Assembly: GCA_053919585.1 (NCBI GenBank) | Contig: CM132804.1 | Strand: one strand, 5' to 3' | DNA length: 64,000 nt | DNA from: Euprymna scolopes | Lineage: Eukaryota | Part shown: positions 1-40,049 of the stretch, one piece after another | Layout of the letters: every line of letters starts with the position of its first letter | Position numbering within the stretch: position 1 is the first letter of the stretch | Program-made: the position numbers and the translations under genes | The notes under the pieces: generated by a model | What the model saw: the letters and a program-made list of their open reading frames with translations, nothing else | Database searches by the model: none | Told to the model about the DNA's origin: nothing

Positions 1-372
1 CAAAACTGGCAGATTGTAGACTTTTCAGTACCCTGGGAGAGGAATGTGAAAGAAAAGGAGAGCGAGAAGTGGAACAATTATGCTCCATTGGCCTTGGAGA
101 TAAGGCGTATACATGGGGTTAAAACACAAATAATCCCGGTTGTAGTTGGTACACTAGAAGTTGTATCACGTATTCTGAAAGGACTACTGAAATAAAAGAC
201 ATATCGCTGATGTTTTAAGTGGCCTTCAGACCTCTGCAATTGTAGGTACTACCATCATCCTTAGAAAAACCCTTGATCTTTGTAAGCTCCTGGTTTGGAG
301 TAAGGATTGAGGGAAATCCTCTGGAAAGTAATCCCATCATTTTCCAGAGAGACGTTGTTTAACGACATCAGA
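1..372 (+). mobile_element. 3' end of an R4/Dong-type (REL endonuclease) non-LTR retrotransposon, degenerate
   Basis: Frame 1 reads QNWQIVDFSVPWERNVKEKESEKWNNYAPLALEIRRIHGVKTQIIPVVVGTL; after a frameshift it continues GLQTSAIVGTTIILRKTLD. This matches the D..VP...KE.EK..Y..LA.E C-terminal pattern of REL endonucleases. A short 3' UTR runs into (ATT)n. Confidence 0.85.
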
Positions 373-5979: not shown

Positions 5980-6024
<45 letters not shown>

Positions 6025-6084
6025 AAATTCCACAGCCAAACAACGTCGCAGCCTACAAAAGCCATGACAATCAAGGAACCGGAA

Positions 6085-6129
6085 GTCCAAGACTCGAGTT
6101 TCGCCCTAGTTCGGGCTCATCAGTTAGAC
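6085..6129 (-). ncRNA. Type I hammerhead ribozyme, intact core
   Basis: Minus strand: GTCTAA-CTGATGA-GCCC(GAACTA)GGGC-GAAAC(TCGA)GTC-TTGGAC. Has the CUGAUGA and GAAA core, a 4-bp stem II, a minimal stem III with a palindromic loop, a GUC cleavage triplet and a 6-bp stem I. Confidence 0.88.
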
Positions 6130-6132
6130 AAA

Positions 6133-6204
6133 TCCGAACTCAGGATTCGAAACCCGAGCCTCTTGCATGCGAGGCAAGCACTCTACCAACTGAGCAAACG
6201 CCCC
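6133..6204 (-). ncRNA. tRNA-Ala(CGC)-derived head (pseudo-tRNA, Pol III A/B boxes)
   Basis: GGGGCGTTTGCTCAGTTGGTAGAGTG-CTTGC(CTCGCAT)GCAAG-AGGCTCGGGTTTCGAATCCTGAG. D, anticodon and T arms form, but the 3' acceptor strand does not pair with GGGGCGT. Confidence 0.8.
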
Positions 6205-6529
6205 GCACACAATAATTTCTATTAACCAACAAAGACCAAGCAAACCGTGCCGAAATCCGACTGTGAATTGAACCTACTTCGTCTCAACAAGGGACGCGGT
6301 CATCCAACCAGCTACATTCTGAAAATCCTATCATAAGTTGCTCGCTTGGTTAGTATTGCTGGATGGTATCGTCCTTTCGAGTTAAAACCCCTACTTGTGA
6401 GACATCGGCTTGGAGTTATTAGCTGGTTGGATGACCGCGTCCCTTGTTGAGACGGAGTAGGTTTATCTCACAGTCGGATTTCGGCGCGGTTTGCTTGATC
6501 TTTGTTGCTTAATAGAAATTCTTGTGTGC

Positions 6530-6649
6530 GGGGCGTTTGCTCAGTTGGTAGAGTGCTTGCCTCGTATGCAAGAGGCTCGGGTTTCGAATCCTGAGTTCGG
6601 ATGTGTCTAACGGATGAGCCCGAATGAGGTCGAAACTCGAGTCTTGGAC
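6530..6649 (+). ncRNA. Second copy of the tRNA-derived head (6530-6601) plus a degenerate hammerhead (6605-6649)
   Basis: Anticodon loop changed to CTCGTAT. Core reads CGGATGA instead of CTGATGA, and stem II (GCCC/GGTC) has a mismatch. Confidence 0.8.
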
Positions 6650-7146
6650 TTCCGGTTCGTTGATTGTCATGGCTCTTGTGGGCTGCGACGTTGTTTGGCT
6701 GCGGAATTTATTATATACAATCTCTCACATTCTGAAAATTATATATATATATATATATATGTTTATATGTGTATGTGCATGCNNNNNNNNNNNNNNNNNN
6801 NNNNNNNNNNNNNNNNNNNNNNNNNNNNNNNNNNNNNNNNNNNNNNNNNNNNNNNNNNNNNNNNNNNNNNNNNNNNNNNNNNNNNNNNNNNNNNNNNNNN
6901 NNNNNNNNNNNNNNNNNNNNNNNNNNNNNNNNNNNTTGAAAATAAAAATCCAGCAGAGTGCTCAATTAAAAGGAAAATCCGAAAAATAAGAGCGTATTTA
7001 TATTTTATATTTTGTGTACAGAAAGTTGTTAGATGAGATAAGTCATCGGTACCGTCGGTTTCAAACCCGATAATTAGGACCGTTTTACATATCCATATCA
7101 AGCTCTCCTCAGCCAGTACTCATCTCTTTCTGTACACAAAATACAA

Positions 7147-20827: not shown

Positions 20828-20958
20828 CCATATGCGGTACTGTTTCGCTGTTTTTCAGCTCATCAGTACGGCTATACAAGGAACTACCTCAAGCCAGGAT
20901 CGAAATCCGACCGCTCAAACGAGAATGGGAGCTTCTAACAGTTGCGCTATACGGCTGC
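20828..20958 (-). ncRNA. Second family of tRNA-like head plus hammerhead (partly degenerate)
   Basis: Minus strand: A-box-like TAGCGCAACTGTTAG, B-box-like GATTTCGATCC, then CCGTA-CTGATGA-GCTG(AAAAA)CAGC-GAAAC-AGTACCGCA-TATGG. Core and stems I/II are intact; stem III and the cleavage triplet are mutated. Confidence 0.65.
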
Positions 20959-25349: not shown

Positions 25350-28300
25350 GGCAAGAGGCATTCGTGTAGTACCTGCGGCATAATGGTGTACATAACAAAC
25401 GTATGGCCTCAAAAATCAACAAAACAGCAGGTCCAACGGCGAACCCCAAAGATACGTTTGCGGTTCACTTGGACACTAAAATCAGGGCTCCTATAACCAC
25501 AAAATCGTCCCCGAGAGCATTCCCCAGAAAACAAGCATAAACAACATAGACTAATTTTAGAGCAGCAACAAAAAGAGGGGCTACAAAAAATTTCGGGAAA
25601 GGACCAGTGGTTGGGAATTACTTGAATTTAAAACTTTACAGAAACAACTAAGATCAAAGACTAGTACCCAGTCTCCATCAAAAAGCCCAGACCCACGTAC
25701 TCCCCAAAAATCATCACCAGAAAAAAAATCATCATAAAATCATCATAAAAATGTCATCAGCAAATATCATGACTCCCCCTTATCACAGGACCAATAAAAT
25801 GGCAACAACAATTTAAACTAATACTATTCAATCCATCACACAAGATACCAAAATTAACTCCCAAACCACAACGCCTCTTCCGCCGAAAACCTATTTCCAG
25901 CACCTCCTACAAAGTCCCAGCCACCATCCCCATTCCTTTACAGGACTCTAAAAACAAACTCCTCCCAATTCCCCAGTAAAAAACTAATTTTAACAACCTG
26001 CACTCCCCCTCAGCCAATGACTCAGACAAATATAGAATACACTACATCCTAACCGGCATCGTCTTTGCTACATCATTGCGAACGTTATAACCAGAGTAAA
26101 AAGCCATCCGCCGAGAGATCTCAGAAAAGTATTTGATTTTTCCACAGTAAAAGTCCTCTGTGCCCACGACACCCTTAATTTCTCGAACGCCAACAGAATA
26201 TTAATAGTCATCAGAACAAGAGATGGAACGAAAGAAATCTAGCGAATGCTGGAGAAAGCTAATTAAAACTTTTATTTTTCACCCTCTCTATTTATCATCA
26301 ACGACCTTACGTTATAAAGTTTTAAAAAATCTTCTTTTGAGAGGGTTCCTGTTCAAATTCATCCCTCATTATATAGGGCTGCTTAACTAACATTTCCTTT
26401 GGCGGTATGCCCCATGGCGGCCATATAAACACTGCCATGACTGAAAATTTACAGGGAACGTGTGATTGACATCCTTATCCCTGACATGATCGTCTCGGAT
26501 ACACAACGCAAAGTGATCATAATGCCACTCAAATTAGCAAGCTTGATTGTTTGAGGGTTGACGGTTACCTCACAAAAACTTCGAGTTGCACGCGACCATC
26601 AACACCTTGGTTGGGATATTTGTTGGCTACAGGAGACTCTCTTTATTCCATCAGATTATTACGGTGTGTTGGATAGGGACTTTCATCTTTACTTAGTATA
26701 TTCTGATATCTATTCAGAGGGAGTTTTCTGGCTAGTTAATCAAAATTTGAAAGCACCATGTGACCCATGATCCTGCTTTTTAGATGTGCGTTTTTGATGT
26801 CACCGTAAGACTTATTGGGGTTTCTCCACATAATAGCCACAATGAGAATCCCCTTTCTTTCGACGGATCGAATATTTCATAAATATATCTAGACGGTTTA
26901 TTTTAGCGGGAGACTGGAACGCGGTGCTGGATCCTGATTAAGATCGCGGGAGTAACGTTTGAAGGGTGACCAATTGAAATCGGGATGTTAACTAATTTCG
27001 GGATTGTATCGATATGTTCATAAGTTCCGGAATTTAAAACCCCGGAAAGAAAGCATATACTTTGACGAGTAGTCACGGCTTCGATTCGATGTAACTTTCG
27101 ATTTATATGGATCAGTTCTAACAAGAGTCGACATAGGTTTTTTAGATTGCCCAAATTTTCAGAATATTTTTTATTCGGACGAGAAACTCACCCAGGTTCA
27201 TTTATACTTAGATTGCGTTAAACCTATGATGGCTTTAGAGTGGAAGTTCAATACGTCATTGTTCGACTTGAAGTACTTCCGGGATGAGCTTTTACTAACC
27301 ATACAACGGAAACCATAATTTGGAATACGTGGTGGGTTGATTCGAAAAAAAAAATTAGGGTATTCGTTGCTGATTATAGTCACCGACTTAATCTTAGCTC
27401 TCGGGTAGTGAAAACGACACTAGAGACTAGATTAGATCTGGCAGTAGAAGACGGAGACTGCAGTAGTTTTACTAGAATAAGGGCATAACTGGACTTGATG
27501 GATTACAATGGCGATCAGGGAATTTTAGTTAGGGCTGGTTGAAGTGAGGGCGAAACGAGAAAACAAATATTGCCGCTTCGTTGCGCGCGGAGAAGCGTTG
27601 GCGGTGAACCAATCGACATATCGTCAGTGTCACATTGCTGGACGAACGCACCTTGACCACAAACGATGGGAATTCGATCCTATTTTCAGGGTCTCTTCAC
27701 TAGAACGTCCACTCTGACAATGGTTCAGTTCCCCATATATTAAGTCCAGTTTTCTCGCCTCAAAGCGATAGAACCGGCTAGGTACGAAAGTTGCAAAAAG
27801 GAAGAAGTCTTGGAGGCTCTGAAACATGTCCAGCTGGAGAGAAATCCTGGTGTCGATGGGCTGTATTACGAAGTATATATGAGATTGTCGCCTTTTTATA
27901 ATCCGCATGGTCGTAATATTTTACTCCTGGTTTAAGAACGGGTGCATTCTTCAGTGTTTTACCAAAGGAATCATTAAATTGCTACACAAGGATAAAAATG
28001 GAGGGGATAGTTTACGTAATGTTCGTCTCTAAACGAAGTCTAATACAGATTTAAAGATTTTAGCCAAGATCTGTGCAAACCGTCTGAAACATTTCTTGCA
28101 TCGCCTTATAAATCCTCAAAAGACTTGTGCAGTTTAGGGCCGGACGATTCATAACTAATTTCTACGTAATTCCCTTGAGTATAGAAATAGTCGACATTGA
28201 AAACTCGCTGATAAATTTAGATACGTCCAAAGCGTTCGATAGGGTCGATCATCGTTACCTGGAGGCTGTTCTGTTCTCATCTGAATTTGGGTCACAATAT

Positions 28301-29720
28301 CGCTTCTGGATTCGCATTCTTTATGCAATACCCGGTGCGCTGGTAGAAGTGAATGGTGTGAGGCCGAAGCCTTTCAATTTGTTCAGATCAATTAAGGGTT
28401 TTCCGCTCTCACCGATTCTTTATGTGCTTGCATTTCGGCCTTTCCTTTGCAGGATTAGAGTTAATCCGGTCTTCGAGGTATTACTCTGCCAGTTGCTTAC
28501 AGGACAAGTGATTACTCTGCTCCCGAGTACTCGCCGACGAGGTAATTGTGCTTGTAAAAAGCAGTGCTTAGACTAAAGTCGTCAACATGAAAGTAAGACT
28601 GTAAAACATGCAACAGGGATCAAAAGCAACTGCGATTACTCCTTGGTTTGCGCATTGCAGCTTGAGGGGAGTACCTCTTCAGGGTTCATTTGACTGGATG
28701 GATCGGCTTTGGAAGATATTCGGCGTCTGATGCGGTCCGCAAATCCAGTTATAGGAAATTGGTCGGAAGTACTGGAAGCTGTTCACGCCATCACACGTTT
28801 ATGGGCCCTGAGAAATCTAACTTTAAAGGGTCGAGCGGAGGTTTGCAATTCGCACATTTATCCTCGTATCCTCTACCGTCTAACAGTACTTTCACTCCCG
28901 GAAACATCACTATTTCAACTTTTTAGTGATATTCTACATTTTCTTGTTGCACAGAAAGAAAACAATGGTTAGCAGGGATATCTGTTAACTGCATCCGTCG
29001 GAAGACGGTCTGATCATGCTAAGCATTGATATCTAGAGGTATACGCTTCTCATAATTTACCTAAACGGAATGTATACACTATGTGACCAGAACAGTGATT
29101 TTTGGACAAAAGACACTAAAAAAATTTTCCAGTTTTGAAAAGTGTACACTCGCCAACAGTAGAGACACACACGTTACCCCAACTGAGTGTTCCTTTATCG
29201 CGAATGTCGAGAGTCCTTGAAGCTCCTCTGACGGGTGAAAGTAAGCCTCTCTGACACCTGCGTGTTTCTTGTAGGGCGCTATATATGTTATAGTGCAGGA
29301 ATATCTTCAAGATGATAGGACGTAGAGTCTCGGTTTTATGAGTGGGGGGGCGACTCTTAGTATGGCCTTTGACGCCTGTGATGACGTGCCTTGATAATTA
29401 TGAGGTTTCACGCACCTTGCACATAATAAGAGATGTTCGCAGCAAACATGGTGAAGACGGTAAGTTGTCTGCGATCGGAGGACGAGATCGAAGCTATCAA
29501 GTGCGCTATCGTACGTCCGTGTCGGCACAGGCCAAGAGAGAAGTGGAATCACGACATAAGCAAGTTTACGGAGATAAAAACGTCACTGCTCTCCAGCTTG
29601 TTTTTATTTTCAAGCACCGCTTGGAAATTTGTATTAGGCTGGAGAAGGTGGAACTCACTCAGGCAAATTTCAACGAATGTAGGATTCCAGTTAAGACCAA
29701 TTGCCGCTGCTAGCGAGAAA
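25350..29720 (+). mobile_element. Tx1/L1-clade non-LTR retrotransposon, long but heavily pseudogenised (5' boundary uncertain)
   Basis: Motifs in order: APE endonuclease (MPLKLASL ~26522, DICWLQET ~26615, ILAGDWNAVLDP ~26900), WKFNTSL (27241), PGVDGLYYEVY (~27845), RT (LINLDTSKAFDRVDH, FPLSPILYVL; 28127-28576) and LWALRNLTLKGRAEVCN (28800). Confidence 0.88.
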
Positions 29721-30518: not shown

Positions 30519-31075
30519 CATGATGATTGCAACGTCTTGTCAGACGAGTACCACTCCCTCGGACATTTAAAATCAATGAGCCCAAATGTCTGAGGGAGTA
30601 TCTATACAAAGATGATGTTAAAGAGTCTTAGCTTTGTACGAAAGCTAAGTCTCTCTCTCGGTTCAAAATGTTGAGATCCAGCAACAAGCCAGAGCAAGAT
30701 AGCCAGCAACAAATTAAACTGCAGACCAGCTTAATGCGGGTACTGGTCTCCCGCTTTATGTTTTTTTTTTAAATCAGAGATTTGCTTCTCCTAGAAAGGT
30801 TGCCTTCACCACGGCTTACGGGAGCCCTCTCCACCCCAATACATATATACACACACACAAATATACACGGTGCTAGTTGGCCGTTGATATAGAAAAAGAG
30901 TTCATTCGCCCTTTGGAAGGTCTTGTTTTTAATCCTCCAGGGAGACTAGCCGCCCTCCTCACAAAACAAGTCTGGTGGGGGAACCAGTTTAGTCGCCGGT
31001 GACCCGACCATGAGGCAGGTAGTACTGGGTTACATGGTACCAGTAGCATATGACATGACCTGACACAAAATACAT
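30519..31075. mobile_element. ~555-bp non-coding dispersed element, copy 1 (inverted relative to 34870-35428)
   Basis: High-identity reverse complement of 34870-35428. Bordered by (CATA)n at one end and short (ATG)n at the other. Confidence 0.85.
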
Positions 31076-32814
31076 ACATACATACATACATACATACACA
31101 CATACACACACATATATATATATATATATATAGATAGATAGAGAGATAGATAGATAGATCTATACTCAAGCATAAACATTTCTTTTGTACGTGTCTTTAT
31201 ATAATATTCTTTTATTAGCAAATATAAAGAAGTGGAATCGAAGTTATAAAAATAGTCTTTTATAAAACGGGTTGAACTTATGACTGCCGACATGCCGAGT
31301 GGGAATTAGGTAAAATAAAACAAGACGCCTTTGGCTTTGACAACCTGTTACCTCCCGCTTTTTAACAATCTGATTGGTGCATTCACCACAATGATGTAAT
31401 AGCAGTCCTGATTTAATTAAACCGTTTATTCTTTTAATCAAGTGAACACTATCGATGTAGTCAGTAAACTACTTGACTGAATTGTTTCTGCATGTTTTGC
31501 TGGAGACAGCATGTCGATAATAAATTTTGTTTCTCATTTTACCAGCCGGAAAGCATGTTAGGAAACAAGCTAAAAACGAAGAACAAGCTGAGATTTAGAG
31601 ATGTGATGAAAAAGGTGCGATGTTTACGGAGTAAAATAATCGCCTCAATATTCGACACGTTCGATTTGAACAATCAATATAGTTAAAACACAATCAGAAA
31701 AACCACCACTACAAGGGGACGCTGTATATTTGTATTATCTTTACTGCAGGTCACCATTGATTCCCAACTTTTCCTTAAAACAGTGATTCTTTCCGGTTTT
31801 ATTGGAAATCTGCATTTTGCAATTCATTGTATTTTTCAATTTCCCTATAACTTTTATAATTATTTTCCATGGGAGACCCCGATGCTAGTGCCATCTCGTA
31901 ATGCTTCTATAAAGATNNNNNNNNNNNNNNNNNNNNNNNNNNNNNNNNNNNNNNNNNNNNNNNNNNNNNNNNNNNNNNNNNNNNNNNNNNNNNNNNNNNN
32001 NNNNNNNNNNNNNNNNNNNNNNNNNNNNNNNNNNNNNNNNNNNNNNNNNNNNNNNNNNNNNNNNNNNNNNNNNNNNNNNNNNNNNNNNNNNNNNNNNNNN
32101 NNNNNNNNNNNNNNNNNNNNTATAAGTTGTGGAATTGCATTTATCTGTGAAATATCTAGCTAATTTGCATATTATTTTAAACATTTATTTTAATTAAATC
32201 CCTTATACTTTTCATTTAGGTTTTTTCATGGGCTGATCATTTTTAGTTAAGTATTACGTGTAATCATATTCATGCAGATATTCTACATGCTTTATATTAG
32301 CGTAATATTTGCGTAAAATGTTATAGTAAACACAATCTTCTGTTTATATATATTTATTTATGCGCATGCATATATTGTTTAAAAATGTGCCTAGCAAACT
32401 CTTCTGTCAGTTTTTTGGCTTACAGATATGAAACTTCATATACAGGGTAATCAAATGCATTTAACACTTTATTTGCGTTTTAGCCGGGGAATCGCTGCAA
32501 AAAAGTAAACATTAAAGAAATGAATATGACAGGTTAAGGTTGAACGACGCCATTACGTATATGCATGTGTAGTGTATTAGCTATTGGTTCATGTTTTTGT
32601 TTTTTATGTTTTCATAGTTCAGGCATTAACGTCAATGGAGAAAGTAAATCGAAAGCTAAATGGTTTGGTTTCGGATCTCGGTTGTCGCGTACGTGTCATT
32701 TTTTAAAACTTGTTAAATGATTTCCATATATTGGGTCCAGTATGATATAATAATCAAAATGAAATCTGCATTAAGGAAAACATGATATTTAAGCATATTT
32801 TACGACCGGCCAAT

Positions 32815-33847
32815 GGCGGGCGGCATGTAAAATGGTCAACCTCTTTCGACCCATCTGTTAGGAAATTCCTGATTTAGAAACTGTCTAACACGCTTAGCAA
32901 GGAGCTCCATCTTGTTGAAACACTGTATCATCTTTCAAGTTTAATTGTTCAAGTTGCGGAATAAAGTAATTCTGCAACATATCTAAGTAGCTGCCATTGA
33001 TAATAACACGATCTTCAAAAAAATATGGCCCTATGATTCGATTTATTCCCAAAGCACACCACACATTAACTTTAAGAGAGTCCCTATCATGTTCAACAGG
33101 TTCATTTGGGGTTTCAGTTCCCCAAACTCGGCAATTATGCCTGTTGACCTTGCCACTAATGTGAAATGTTGCTTCATCAGACAACAGTAAATTACTCACA
33201 AATGCATCATCATTGCACAGTTTTTCATTGAACTGGTGACAGAAAGTTAGCCGTGCATAATAATCCTCTTCTAACAACTGTTGATGTAATTGAATTTTGT
33301 AAGCTTTCATGTGAAGTTTTGCCCGCAGAATCTTATGCACAGTAGACTTTGGCAGCCCGAGCTCCAATAATGCCCGTCTTACAGACTTTCTTGGACTTGC
33401 AGTAAAGGATTCTCCTATGGAAGCAACACTTTCGTCACTGACACATGCCCTTCCAGAACGTTGTTTATCATAGACAGAGACCGTCTCTTTAAATTTTTTC
33501 ATGCATTTAACAATAGTGTTCCTATGAGGCGCTTTTTTATTGTATTCAATTCTAAACTGCCTTTGTACAGCAATAGTAGATTTCAATTCAGCCAACCAAA
33601 AGGACACAGTTTACTTTTTCCTCAATTGAAGCCATGGGATCAAATTGATTCTGAAAAACAAAAGAAAATATGTTTTACTGATTTTTTACTTATCGGAAAA
33701 TTGTTACGAGTTTTGTGGTGAAAAAGTATTCAATAACAAGACTTACAACTAGATACATGAAACTGTATAACATTTTTTTACAGATTATTTCTTTCGCAAA
33801 TATAAATAAAATTTAATTTTTTAAAAGTGCAGACGAACTTTATGGAC

Positions 33848-33853
<6 letters not shown>
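32815..33853 (-). pseudogene. Tc1/mariner-superfamily (rosa/DD41D-like) transposase pseudogene with one TIR, 3'-truncated
   Basis: ORF 32894-33607 has an HTH region, SDEATFH, VNVWC, IIGPYFF and FQQDGAP. A stop follows GAPC and the ATG at 33635 is frameshifted. The TIR-like end tagggtgtccataaagtt abuts (TA)n. Confidence 0.9.
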
Positions 33854-33917
<64 letters not shown>

Positions 33918-34817
33918 CATACAGTAGCGTCTAAAAATAAGGGAGAGTATTAAAAACCTATTATTCGTTAGAAATAACAACTGTGAAAGTCTGAAATTTT
34001 GACAACTGGTAGTCATTATAATCCATAATAAGATACTAAAATTTGAATCATTTGCAAAGGATGGAAAAAGAATTATAACAATTATTTATTTTCAAAATAG
34101 GAACGTCCAAAGATAAAGGAGAAAATTGAGATCATTTTGAATTCGAACGTCATAAAACGACGTTATTCCTGCACCGACCTACTAGGCACTTTGTTTTCCT
34201 TTATAATTGGAGTAAAATAAGCATCCTTTACGTCTAATTATTATCTGAATTTTTCATGTAGAGATCAACATGATGTATTCCCTATTTAGTCTTAGCATTC
34301 GAAACGATGCACGTGCTACGAATTGAGTGTCATTATCAGAGTGTTTAAAACTCGAATTTTGCAAATTAAGTTGTCTCTGATTCATGTATGACCATTATCT
34401 TTTCTACTCCGATATGAAAGAAACTTTTCTCCTTGTGTCTGTCTGAGTTCGGTCTCTACGGATTCCTAAAAAGATTGACTATTTTTTATTTAACTTAAAC
34501 ACAAATATACATTATGTGTCTGGCCGTGTTCTAAGATCACATTCATTTCGGAATGTCTGCGATATATAACGATAACCGAAAATCGAACACATTAATAAGA
34601 GTGAAAGTTAACGCCTTATACAGCCAACTACAACAAGCACATTTGAAAAGTTTTATTAACACACAAGCGGAAAGACCCGGCATATAGAATCAAACATGCT
34701 TTGATATGAAAGGGGTACTACGAAACGAATATTTCTCTTTAGAGCATAGCAGAACCATGTTACTTTATATTAGCATTTTAAATTTAATTTAAGATTCAAA
34801 ACATTATACATAGCACC

Positions 34818-36079
34818 AATTTATAATATAAACCTCACCTGTCTGTTTAAATGCATGTATGTATGTATGTATGTATGTTATATGTCAGGTTATATCATAT
34901 GCTACTGGTACCATGTAACCCAGTACTACCTGCCTCATGGTCGGGTCACCGGCGACTAAACTGGTTCCCCCACCAGACTTGTTTTGTGAGGAGGGCTGAT
35001 AGTCTCCCTGAAGGATTAAAAACAAGTCCTTCCAAAGGGCGAATGGACTCTTTTTCTGGGTCAACGGCCAACTAGCACCGTGTATATTTGTGTGTGTTTA
35101 TATGTGTATTGGGGTAGAGAGGGCTTCCGTAAGCTGTGGTGAAGGCAACCTTTCTAGGAGAAGCGAATCTCTGATTTAAAAAAAACATAAATCGGAAGAC
35201 CAGTACCCGCATTAAGCTGGTCTGCAGTTTAATTTGTTGCTGGCTATCTTGCTCTTGCTTGTTGCTGGATCTCAACATTTTGAACCGAGAGAGAGACTTA
35301 GCTGTCGTACAAAGCTAAGACTCTTTAACATCATATTTGTATAGATACTCCCTCAGACATTTCGGCTCATGGATTTTAAATGTCTGAGGGAGTGGTACTC
35401 GTCTGACAAGACGTTGCAATCATCATCATGTCTGTTTGCCTAAAACTTTGGACAGACGCGTTGAAACGTGAGAAAACCGGATTCATGTTAAACCAAGAAC
35501 TTTCAGTCGACAAATATTGAAAAATTAGCCAAACACATTAATCCCTTCACCCTCACTAGGGGCAGTTTTCTACAAGGAGGGGTTTCGCAGATATTTTCGA
35601 AAGTCATCCACTCTTTTCGATGTTCTAGCCTTAATTATGACGTTAGTCCCTCCTGGTATTTCGATGGAAGCAACAGCAATGACATCACGTTGTTTTTTAC
35701 GTTCTTTTCCTCCTTCTCGGTACCGATTTGAGCCTGCCTACATTGCTTCTACCGTTTTTTTTTTCCTTTTGCTCAACACACACCTCCAAACAGCCAGGAA
35801 GTGCCGGGAACCTAGACTAGTTTTAAAATAAAAGAAACAGTAGGGTATCTACAGTACAATGTAAATGACAATGTATTGTGTACGAAGTCACTGCGGGGAG
35901 TATGTGAACCCCCCTCCCCACCTAGTGAACCTCGCTGAGTCCCTAACTATAGCAGAGAGTTTATCGATTTGATTGAAAAAATGAGTGATTTCACCGATAC
36001 CGATGACAATAAAAATATGAGTGTTAAACATTTGTTGATCATCTTTCAATAACGGGCAACGTCGGGTCTCCCTGCTAGT
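34818..36079 (+). mobile_element. Helitron-like non-autonomous element interrupted by the 555-bp element
   Basis: Starts ttataatataaacctcacctgtctg, homologous to 41681 onward, and homology resumes after 35428. Ends cgggcaacgtcggg...CTAGT. Confidence 0.55.
34870..35428. mobile_element. ~555-bp non-coding dispersed element, copy 2
   Basis: Inverted copy of 30519-31075, inserted in the (TATG)n tract of a Helitron-like element. Confidence 0.85.
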
Positions 36080-38463: not shown

Positions 38464-38540
38464 ATACAGGGTGTCCACAAAGTCTGGCTACATTATGTAG
38501 CCAGACTTTGTAGGAACATTCTGTAGATTATGTAGCCAGA
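38464..38540. mobile_element. Tc1/mariner TIR-derived MITE-like fragment
   Basis: TA-cagggtgtccacaaagtctggctaca with an internal palindrome. A related end lies at 38984-39040, and both resemble the TIR at ~33835-33853. Confidence 0.5.
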
Positions 38541-38674
38541 NNNNNNNNNNNNNNNNNNNNNNNNNNNNNNNNNNNNNNNNNNNNNNNNNNNNNNNNNNNN
38601 NNNNNNNNNNNNNNNNNNNNNNNNNNNNNNNNNNNNNNNNNNNNNNNNNNNNNNNNNNNNNNNNNNNNNNCGAT

Positions 38675-38728
38675 TAAGCTACACTGAATATTCTGTGTTT
38701 CATCCAACTATAGGATTCGTCAGGCTTA
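38675..38728 (-). ncRNA. Type I hammerhead ribozyme (left arm of palindrome)
   Basis: TAAGC-CTGACGA-ATCC(TATAGTT)GGAT-GAAAC-ACAGAATATTCAGT-GTA-GCTTA. Confidence 0.82.
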
Positions 38729-38744
38729 TGCGCGAATTCGCACA

Positions 38745-38798
38745 TAAGCCTGACGAATCCTATAGTTGGATGAAACGCAGAATATTCAGTGTAGCTTA
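38745..38798 (+). ncRNA. Type I hammerhead ribozyme (right arm of palindrome)
   Basis: TAAGC-CTGACGA-ATCC(TATAGTT)GGAT-GAAAC-GCAGAATATTCAGT-GTA-GCTTA. Full core, GUA triplet (cut predicted after 38793) and a near-palindromic stem III. Confidence 0.85.
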
Positions 38799-38928
38799 AT
38801 CGCCATATATATTTTATAAATTACTAACTAGCCCTACCTACGTATTGAGCACTTTTGAAGTAAATACTTAAAGTTTACGCATAAATCAATACTTTCGTAT
38901 ATCAAATTTGTGTGAATAAATGAAGTAG

Positions 38929-38989
<61 letters not shown>

Positions 38990-40049
38990 GCCCACAAAGT
39001 CTGGCCACATAATCTACATGATGCTTCCACAAAGTCTGGCTGTGATATAGATGGCTCGAAATAACGTTTAAAATGCAAACGTCAAGTATCATGAATCAGT
39101 TGTGCTCTAAACAAAAAACATCTATTTCGAACGTGCTACTTTCATATCAAATAACCTACTTTTGGGTTTATACGACTGGCTTTACTGTCTGTGCAGTGAA
39201 AATGGCGTGAATTGACGTTTTAAATGAAAAGCTAAAGATTTAATTATGGTCTAAAAAGGAACAGTCATTTCGAAGGCGCCTCTCTCATATAAAATAACCA
39301 ACCGTTGATTCTATATGTCTGGACTTTCACATTGTGTGGTAATAACACTTCTTAAATGCTGTTCTGATGTTAAGCTGTAAAATAATTTAACATTTTGTCG
39401 AATTTGCGTCTCTCACATTTCATCGGATTTTTTTTTCAATTAATGACTATGTTAAACTGTTTTTGACTCCTAATGGGGGTAGTGATTTAATTGCTGCCCA
39501 CATAAGCAATATTTGACACAAGGCCTAGAAAGTGGGGACTAAAGCAAGCTCTCCTAAATGCGGCTAGGAGCTGTTTCTTTTCCACATTCGGTGCAAAATC
39601 TTCTGTCTGTTTCGAGCGGGTATTGGCTTTTTTTATTGAAGGGCCACAGGGTGGGTAGATCGATCCACCCAACCAATCAGCGATACGTTTCCTGGAGAAT
39701 TCCAGACCCGAATTGCGTGTGAGCACTATGACCAGAATTTTGTAATCTGGGACCAAAATGAAATCATCTTCACACGACCTGAAGAGGTCAACCCCTGTCA
39801 ATTGTTTTGCTTAGAACCCAGCGCGTCTGGGCCGGGGTTTCCCGGGCGAACCAGTACAAATCTCGTTAAACAATGAAATATCAAGTAAAAGCATATCACT
39901 TTTTATACCCGCCGTTGTCCGGGATTCAATTTACATTTAACGGACAATTCTTAGCATATTGGCCCGGTCTTCCTCAGGTCCCAGGGGTCGCAACGTCTCC
40001 AAGGGGTGCAATCGCTCCCTCAAGACGATCATGTTACGCAAACAATAAT

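Follow-up and report, generated by a model that had tools for sequence, protein, structure and literature searches.

Double-hammerhead palindromes in the Euprymna scolopes genome as probable products of two-armed Penelope-like element insertion

A 132-bp palindrome without spacer, with a hammerhead ribozyme motif readable on each of its strands, occupies positions 38671-38802 of the window (the whole 64,000-nucleotide stretch of DNA analyzed here). The palindrome almost certainly originates from a Penelope-like element (PLE). Taken as a whole, it is best explained as a two-armed PLE insertion, in which two cDNAs primed at internal sites of the element RNA had their ends joined; we put the probability of this reading at about 0.8. 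The locus itself is ordinary, as the genome holds about two thousand hairpins of this kind, and is most likely a dead product. In the following, positions within the family are given as q coordinates, where q1 is window position 38737, immediately to the right of the centre, and negative values lie upstream in the element. The locus contains the following features:

38671..38739, minus strand: inverted, 5'-truncated PLE pseudo-LTR end (the visible left arm), 98.6% identical to the natural copy L042 over 69 nt
38671..38733, minus strand: mirror hammerhead motif, core from 38723, predicted cut between 38680 and 38679 (folds, core scan, variants)
38734..38739, no strand: GAATTC centre common to both arms, which overlap by 6 nt; the same centre occurs at 14 loci
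38734..38933, plus strand: forward 5'-truncated copy, pseudo-LTR end and tail, 95.5% identical to L042 over 200 nt
38740..38745, plus strand: predicted transcription start zone and main junction hotspot, with GCGC at 38740-38743 in the family sequence
38740..38803, plus strand: type I hammerhead motif, core from 38750, predicted cut after 38793 (arm folds, core scan, variants)
38827..38933, plus strand: PLE tail of 107 nt, between the fixed 3' end points (equivalents of 38826 and 38933)
38932..38985, no strand: (TA)n microsatellite, the target of the family (sequence)

The centre of the palindrome lies between 38736 and 38737, and 64 of its 66 pairs match, the exceptions being 38731/38742 and 38696/38777. 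This agrees with an initial annotation made from the sequence alone, which had described a 132-bp spacerless palindrome on GAATTC with two mismatched positions. Both mismatches are G-to-A changes at CpG, one in each arm, and CpG decay is a plausible source for them; among the arm-private differences in palindromes of the family, only 9 of 80 are of this type. GAATTC is a self-complementary hexamer of the element itself, located just upstream of the ribozyme and found in ORF-linked copies too. The left arm had been described as abutting a gap. The N at this place is not an assembly gap, since the genome's own copy of it (L001) carries no N and its left arm reaches q90, the usual end point of the family, 90 nt from the centre. 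Whereas the coordinates first given were correct for the palindrome, the insertion unit exceeds them, since the right arm continues to 38933. The insertion lies between short copies of a palindrome-rich repeat (38465-38540 and 38986-39045), which face in opposite directions and by eye are about 80% alike; they resemble the ends of Tc1/mariner-type MITEs.

Each strand contains the parts of a hammerhead in the expected order, with a stem I of 5 bp, CUGACGA, a stem II of 4 bp closed by a 7-nt loop, GAAA, stem III and GUA. The core scan and the arm folds recovered a type I core on both strands, as the description of an intact-looking hammerhead on each had implied. On the plus strand, 38742 is an A where the family has G, and one pair is lost in the outer part of stem I. 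The mirror motif carries a single private change, by which G-U becomes A-U in one pair of stem III. The cut after 38793 is predicted from the hammerhead consensus and its numbering. The layout around this position agrees with that described for PLE hammerheads in PMC4209133. Taken singly, the two arms have the hammerhead shape as their minimum-energy fold (-8.9 and -9.7 kcal/mol), which is not more stable than the folds of shuffled sequences (z 0.36 and -0.18), and an Rfam search returned no hammerhead at the palindrome, neither at the gathering score nor at E values up to 10. In L042, a natural copy, q4-q67 takes a complete hammerhead as its minimum-energy fold (-12.5 kcal/mol), stem I being extended and beginning at q4, and this fold persists in the longer segment q4-q260. 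Recurrent subfamily changes hit the variable core base, loop II, the stem II wobble and the stem III mismatch, and spare the conserved core. This pattern suggests selection on the ribozyme in the source elements, not at this locus.

The palindrome as RNA folds at -112.8 kcal/mol (z about -25), and none of 200 shuffled sequences was equally stable. Three ribozyme helices tested, which reach probabilities of 0.45, 0.79 and 0.51 in one arm, have a probability of 0.0 in the full palindrome. The rod fold thus abolishes both ribozyme folds in these models, and a transcript through the locus is predicted to form a rod of 66 bp or more with neither ribozyme folding.

Sequence comparison identifies both arms as pseudo-LTR pieces of an element whose ORF encodes a reverse transcriptase (RT) and a GIY-YIG endonuclease (EN). 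In the assembly containing the window (5.9 Gb, 925 contigs), the right arm is repeated at high copy number (of 2,387 candidates, 40 were scored, at 97-100%). A 34-mer of the core has 5,216 exact matches and a 25-mer of the tail 29,488, giving at least that many tail copies. The same motif adjoins an ORF in L042 and in L031, where two inverted copies flank a broken ORF; among the 128 of 30,019 candidates scored with the ORF of L031, several frames were near 780 aa. L048 has an open frame of 782 aa, and of 7,999 candidates 1,316 are related to its protein, most of them by far without a name. Neither the ORF nor its alignment gave an RT or EN match when searched by sequence against Pfam and PDB, and assignment of the two domains needed a structure model and the isolated C-terminal part, respectively. 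The model of a 763-aa product has a pLDDT of 90.9 and telomerase RTs as its best Foldseek matches (E 1.5e-8). The C-terminal 142 aa match Pfam GIY-YIG PF01541 at 22.8 bits, the cut-off being 22.6, and the conserved residues are Y644, Y660, G662, R671, H675, E730 and N745. The element reads in the order hammerhead (q4-67), end point q90, end point q197, ATG at q260, ORF, a 3' region with promoter-like words, and hammerhead. In full elements the tail runs on into the 5' UTR, with the ATG 63 nt beyond the tail end. The features that characterize EN+ PLEs are found together in this family: a single ORF with a telomerase-like RT (the 782-aa frame, the model and the TERT matches), a C-terminal GIY-YIG domain, a hammerhead motif in the pseudo-LTR (pLTR) with core and stems in the fold, and pseudo-LTRs with a tail, arranged both as partial tandems and inverted.

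The diagnosis of the Hydra clade comprises DKT, an RWK-type motif, CxCx5C, absence of CCHH, CxxC/CxH, a length below 3 kb and insertion into (TA)n, and the element agrees with it. ADKT at 113-116, R37-W38, C623-C625-C631, C724/C727 and C754/H756 are found in 97-98% of 118 relatives; L048 itself departs from C754, with R at 754. Placement by motifs against the published diagnosis points to a Penelope-like element of the Hydra type. A low-confidence Asn-rich linker, derived from an (AAT)n tract, separates RT and EN in L048:1390-3738 (residues about 577-618) and resembles the N-rich inserts in rotifer PLEs reported in PMC3846280.

Other elements are present in the window. A head-to-head pair of another family lies at 6017-6717, with 298-nt arms that are 94% complementary and 105 nt apart. 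In this pair a tRNA-like segment is directly followed by a hammerhead, ending in (TA)n; Rfam Hammerhead_1 scores 50.9 bits at 6085-6129 on the minus strand and tRNA matches fall at 6140-6195 and 6539-6594, while the mirrored core, CGGAUGA, looks dead. A third hammerhead-like core, without Rfam score, lies by a TA-rich tract at 20843-20876 on the minus strand, with a possibly tRNA-like stretch upstream. Inverted arms of 249 and 308 nt at 30520-35426 enclose what by eye is a mariner/Tc1-like transposase frame (32894-33610, minus strand), and 28112-28576 resembles, again by eye, a fragment of a LINE reverse transcriptase.

A genome-wide search for palindromic copies, proposed with the initial annotation, returned 14 loci centred on GAATTC and 2,010 head-to-head loci with arms at q9-21 and a spacer of up to 30 nt. 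Since L058 and L070 carry identical variants, the GAATTC loci are 13 distinct ones. In the other 13 GAATTC loci, one arm mostly ends at or near q90 (q75-94) and the other at q194-196, one short arm being unaligned. We also sampled the first 100 tail matches on contig C1 out of the 29,488, a set that is not random and in which a few copies share an insertion. An inverted copy was present within 40 nt in 47 of these 100 (72 inverted matches minus 25 of (TA)n noise), and 33 of the 47 end exactly at q90. Spacerless palindromes centred on GCGC accounted for 11 of the 100 copies. In all 11 cut-site palindromes inspected, the arms end at q83-94 and q191-197 with (TA)n beyond. Of 80 arm ends, 35 could be resolved, and 34 of these have a TA-rich flank. 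The arms thus end at two fixed points, q90 and q196/197, and the unit is a typical PLE insertion, composed of an inverted 5'-truncated copy, a forward copy and the tail, within (TA)n. The origin first proposed, in a Penelope-associated insertion, is borne out by the link to the RT and GIY-YIG ORF and by this family-wide inverted architecture. Two of the 18 ORF-bearing copies, L048 and L054, start at q192-193, nearly at the distal end point q197, and look as if the cDNA had halted one unit length from its beginning.

The two arms of a palindrome have more in common with each other than with other loci. A five-site haplotype was common to both arms in 23 of 33 palindromes, whereas 10,000 shuffles gave a mean of 4.0 and a maximum of 12 (7 of the 40 palindromes were left out for a poorly aligned arm). 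The arm haplotypes differed in the 10 others, at more than one site in 2 of them. Arm differences were 2.6 within loci and 5.3 between loci in 31 of 38 cases, and six variants were each found in both arms of a single locus only. Palindromes were found in all sequence subfamilies, and of the 11 haplotypes seen in long copies, 10 are also found in copies starting at q3-9. These comparisons therefore indicate that the palindromes arose repeatedly, from successive subfamilies.

The junctions between the arms cluster at two places. All sub-counts were made by eye on the first 50 loci listed for each pattern. For the 2,010 loci, 42 of 50 were centred on GCGC and 5 on GC; this dominant GCGC centre is located 6 nt downstream of the GAATTC centre of the present locus. 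Two control words placed upstream gave 2 and 123 head-to-head loci; as the first fitted only the youngest subfamily, it was substituted by the second, commoner one. Downstream, 562 loci were obtained with arms at q60-72 and 601 with arms at q64-73, and the centre was AGCT (q57-60) in 27 of 50 and 31 of 50, respectively, and the adjacent TTAA in 4 of 50; the 8-nt centre GAATATTC was found at 52 loci. Arms at q32-42 gave 1,233 heterogeneous loci, with 2 of 50 symmetric and 1 of 50 on CTAG, a word of the same composition as AGCT; the numbers for these zones are comparable only roughly, since the patterns differ in arm length and are subfamily-sensitive. The second peak (q57/58) coincides with the predicted hammerhead cut, with the AGCT centre leaving a start at q57 and one at q58 indistinguishable. 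The junctions are centred on self-complementary words of the element; in both peaks these words end in GC, so that microhomology inflates the peaks. A loose end at a cut-site junction was also seen in the contigs of X10, an independent run. The family turns up in RNA library contigs, poly(A) ones included, in which the source locus is not distinguished, and there loose ends in (TA)n lie at q90 and q197. Among the first 50 of the 562 loci, about 6 join an arm that starts near q55-56 to one that starts near q39-40, running through the complementarity of ribozyme stem III.

The 5' ends of individual copies, placed by BLAST with 10 natural references, gave a similar picture for the first peak. Forward arms started at q3-9 in 32 of the 100 sampled copies (15 at q4), at q10-36 in 12 and at q-24..2 in 1, that is 0.075, 0.006 and 0.0013 ends per nt at risk. 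Apparent ends at q-26 and q31 obtained with a single BLAST reference were false, being caused by subfamily differences. Of 24 long copies, 21 have a TATAAAA that begins 29 nt upstream of q4, and ATTGG boxes lie farther upstream, in subfamilies that differ in the sequence between. A 3' splice site before q4 was rejected by eye, the context being purine-rich and AG missing in several copies. No inverted arm was detected in 9 of the 32 copies starting at q3-9, and about six of these abut simple repeats. By contrast, none of the 18 oriented ORF-bearing loci starts at q3-9 (1 of 19 without the ATG match) and most extend far upstream. We therefore rejected the idea that full-length copies begin at the predicted transcription start; they would instead stem from another template (tandem, read-through or circular RNA).

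These observations can be assembled into a scheme of insertion. The protein of the element would cut the (TA)n site and both target strands would be primed, producing two cDNAs from two fixed internal sites, q90 and q197, of one kind of RNA. The cDNAs would then stop on the RNA or run off it, their 3' ends would anneal at a self-complementary word, and fill-in would follow. With priming in the pseudo-LTR, near the RNA 5' end, both cDNAs would run off at the same base, at the start or at the cut, and end in GC, which could explain the two peaks. The dominant junctions at q4-q9 and q57/58 would accordingly mark RNA 5' ends, formed by transcription starting behind the TATA box and by the hammerhead cut. 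Twin priming is applied here by inference from Anolis, where the protein of the PLE PAc cuts and extends both target strands, starting at two internal sites that flank the tail, according to PMC11167929. The same source reports no RNA reads ending at the hammerhead cut, and cleavage not needed in vitro. The present copy is of the rarer kind. Its cDNAs likely paired through GAATTC, and since they had passed q4 by 6 nt, a minor start or a longer template is likely.

It is likely that the junction pile-ups record the ends of RNAs copied by twin internal priming. The more specific proposal, that the small palindromes are a fossil record of RNA 5' ends in which a TATA-driven transcript begins with the hammerhead and the two peaks stand for start and cut, is put forward tentatively, at somewhat less than even odds.

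The most serious alternative keeps the PLE origin and has neither a start nor a cut: on a longer RNA, a polymerase would stop as it leaves the ribozyme fold at q4 and stall where the three stems meet at q57/58, or an exonuclease would be arrested at the stem I base, and GC microhomology would sharpen the resulting peaks. We consider this unlikely, though less so than the other alternatives. It would account for the exact coincidence of q4 with the base at which the predicted extended stem I begins, for the free passage of ORF-bearing copies through q4, where none of the 18 starts, and for the location of both peaks on self-complementary words. However, reverse transcriptases usually halt on entering a stem, and the entry here corresponds to the q67 side. 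Conservation of the TATA spacing across subfamilies with different neighbouring sequence also argues against it, as do the scarcity of CTAG centres, despite a composition identical to that of AGCT, and the solo copies (about six) that start at q4-q8 directly against simple repeats.

Self-priming, in which one cDNA or antisense template folds at a short palindrome and copies itself, appears improbable. It would readily produce arms with common haplotypes and private variants, and inverted-junction palindromes are interpreted as self-priming on an antisense template in PMC3846280. But the short arm ends at q90 in 33 of 47 cases, a point that is also a 3' end of long copies, a centre without spacer leaves no loop, and many junctions are asymmetric or contain filler. 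The fold-back insertion product of a Penelope-associated element first suggested for the locus is thus right as to the element, while a literal fold-back fits less well than two primed cDNAs, since the fixed site at which the short arm ends also serves other copies as their 3' end.

Rather less credible still is a self-propagating, non-autonomous palindrome, transcribed and re-inserted as a unit whose self-complementarity eases joining. The dominance of one centre and the fixed unit (42 of the first 50), the share of this unit among the sampled copies (11 of 100) and a haplotype commoner in short copies than in long ones (9 of 32 against 2 of 28) could all be read in this way. Against it, the short copies in this sample of 32 and 28 bear the haplotypes of long promoter-bearing copies, the unit has no promoter, and several centres coexist in several subfamilies.

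The locus had also been thought of as a possible self-inhibited ribozyme or as akin to viroid-like RNAs with ribozymes of both polarities. Avsunviroid-type and viroid-like circular RNAs carry ribozymes in both polarities, and the likeness is that a hammerhead can be read on each strand of a stable rod in which it is locked. Both cores are intact and the family appears in the poly(A) library contigs, with the source locus not distinguished. Unlike those RNAs, the palindrome is a linear insertion in a chromosome, a repeat tied to a retrotransposon ORF, and its motifs are mirror copies instead of two distinct ribozymes on a circular replicon. With about two thousand equivalent palindromes, found in all subfamilies, no sign that this copy is conserved, and helix probabilities falling from 0.45-0.79 in one arm to 0.0 in the rod, neither a viroid-like meaning nor a selected switch finds support, and a double-ribozyme RNA is very improbable. 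Least probable of all is a fold-back artefact of assembly or library: palindromes are a known class of such artefacts and an N stands beside the left arm in the window, but the genome's own copy has no N, the arms differ at two sites and in length and end at biologically fixed points, the centre is common to 13 distinct loci, and the cut-site junction recurs in the independent-run contigs.

A two-armed PLE insertion, the reading we prefer, can be compared with the known systems, each as described in the parts of the cited papers used here. An inverted 5'-truncated copy together with a tail is typical of PLEs (Craig et al. 2021, PMC8557442). As in the EN+ PLE units of that paper, the inverted 5'-truncated copy lies at the 5' end, the tail is on one arm only, the hammerhead is in the pseudo-LTR, the target is (TA)n and partial tandems occur. 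In contrast to those units, the tail is 107 nt long instead of 30-40, and the commonest product is an ORF-less palindrome of about 280 bp with a fixed junction; the sections of PMC8557442 used make no mention of junction hotspots such as those present here. The family has in common with the Hydra clade of PMC8557442 the short element, the RW and DKT motifs, the CxCx5C linker, a canonical hammerhead, (TA)n insertion, and a GIY-YIG domain without internal cysteines but with CxxC and CxH around the conserved E and N; it differs in that this copy has RWR, not RWK.

Opposite-strand hammerhead pairs and junction palindromes of PLEs are already in print (PMC4209133 and PMC3846280). The Penelope elements of Adineta vaga (Arkhipova et al. 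2013, PMC3846280) have head-to-head inverted pLTRs, junction palindromes and a putative TATA box in the pLTR, as here. Their palindromes, of 18-38 bp and in few copies, were read as antisense self-priming, whereas the junction positions counted here over thousands of copies point to two primed cDNAs that each terminate at an RNA 5' end. The hammerheads of PLEs are of type I, in the pLTR, with a palindromic loop III (Cervera and De la Pena 2014, PMC4209133), and pairs of motifs on opposite strands, separated by 100-700 bp, are on record for Schistosoma in the same paper. The present motifs resemble them in type and location, in the opposite-strand pair and in the palindromic loop III. They differ in that the two abut without spacer, and stem III is longer and stem I predicted to be extended, so that the motif could fold as a monomer. 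The PAc element of Anolis (Frangieh et al. 2024, PMC11167929) offers two internal RT starts bounding the tail, extension of both strands and an AT-rich target, as proposed here; PAc belongs to the Poseidon clade, and whereas no RNA ends were found at its cut, the present family has a genomic junction peak at the predicted one. Non-LTR retrozymes consist of head-to-tail tandem units with a type I hammerhead in each (bioRxiv 10.64898/2026.07.22.740005), while the arrangement here is head-to-head with one unit per strand.

The formation of inverted pseudo-LTRs and the cleavage by PLE hammerheads in vivo are both stated as open in the portion of the PLE literature used here, and the junction statistics address both. 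They make exact predictions, namely RNA starts at q4-q8, 5'-hydroxyl ends at q58 and RT starts at q90 and q197. If the proposed origin of the two peaks is true, the palindromes would provide genomic evidence for germ-line cleavage by a PLE hammerhead, with the cleaved RNA still undergoing reverse transcription and insertion. The approximately two thousand near-perfect hairpins may be a source of dsRNA for silencing of the element. For double-hammerhead palindromes in animal genomes, a PLE insertion product is the first thing to check.
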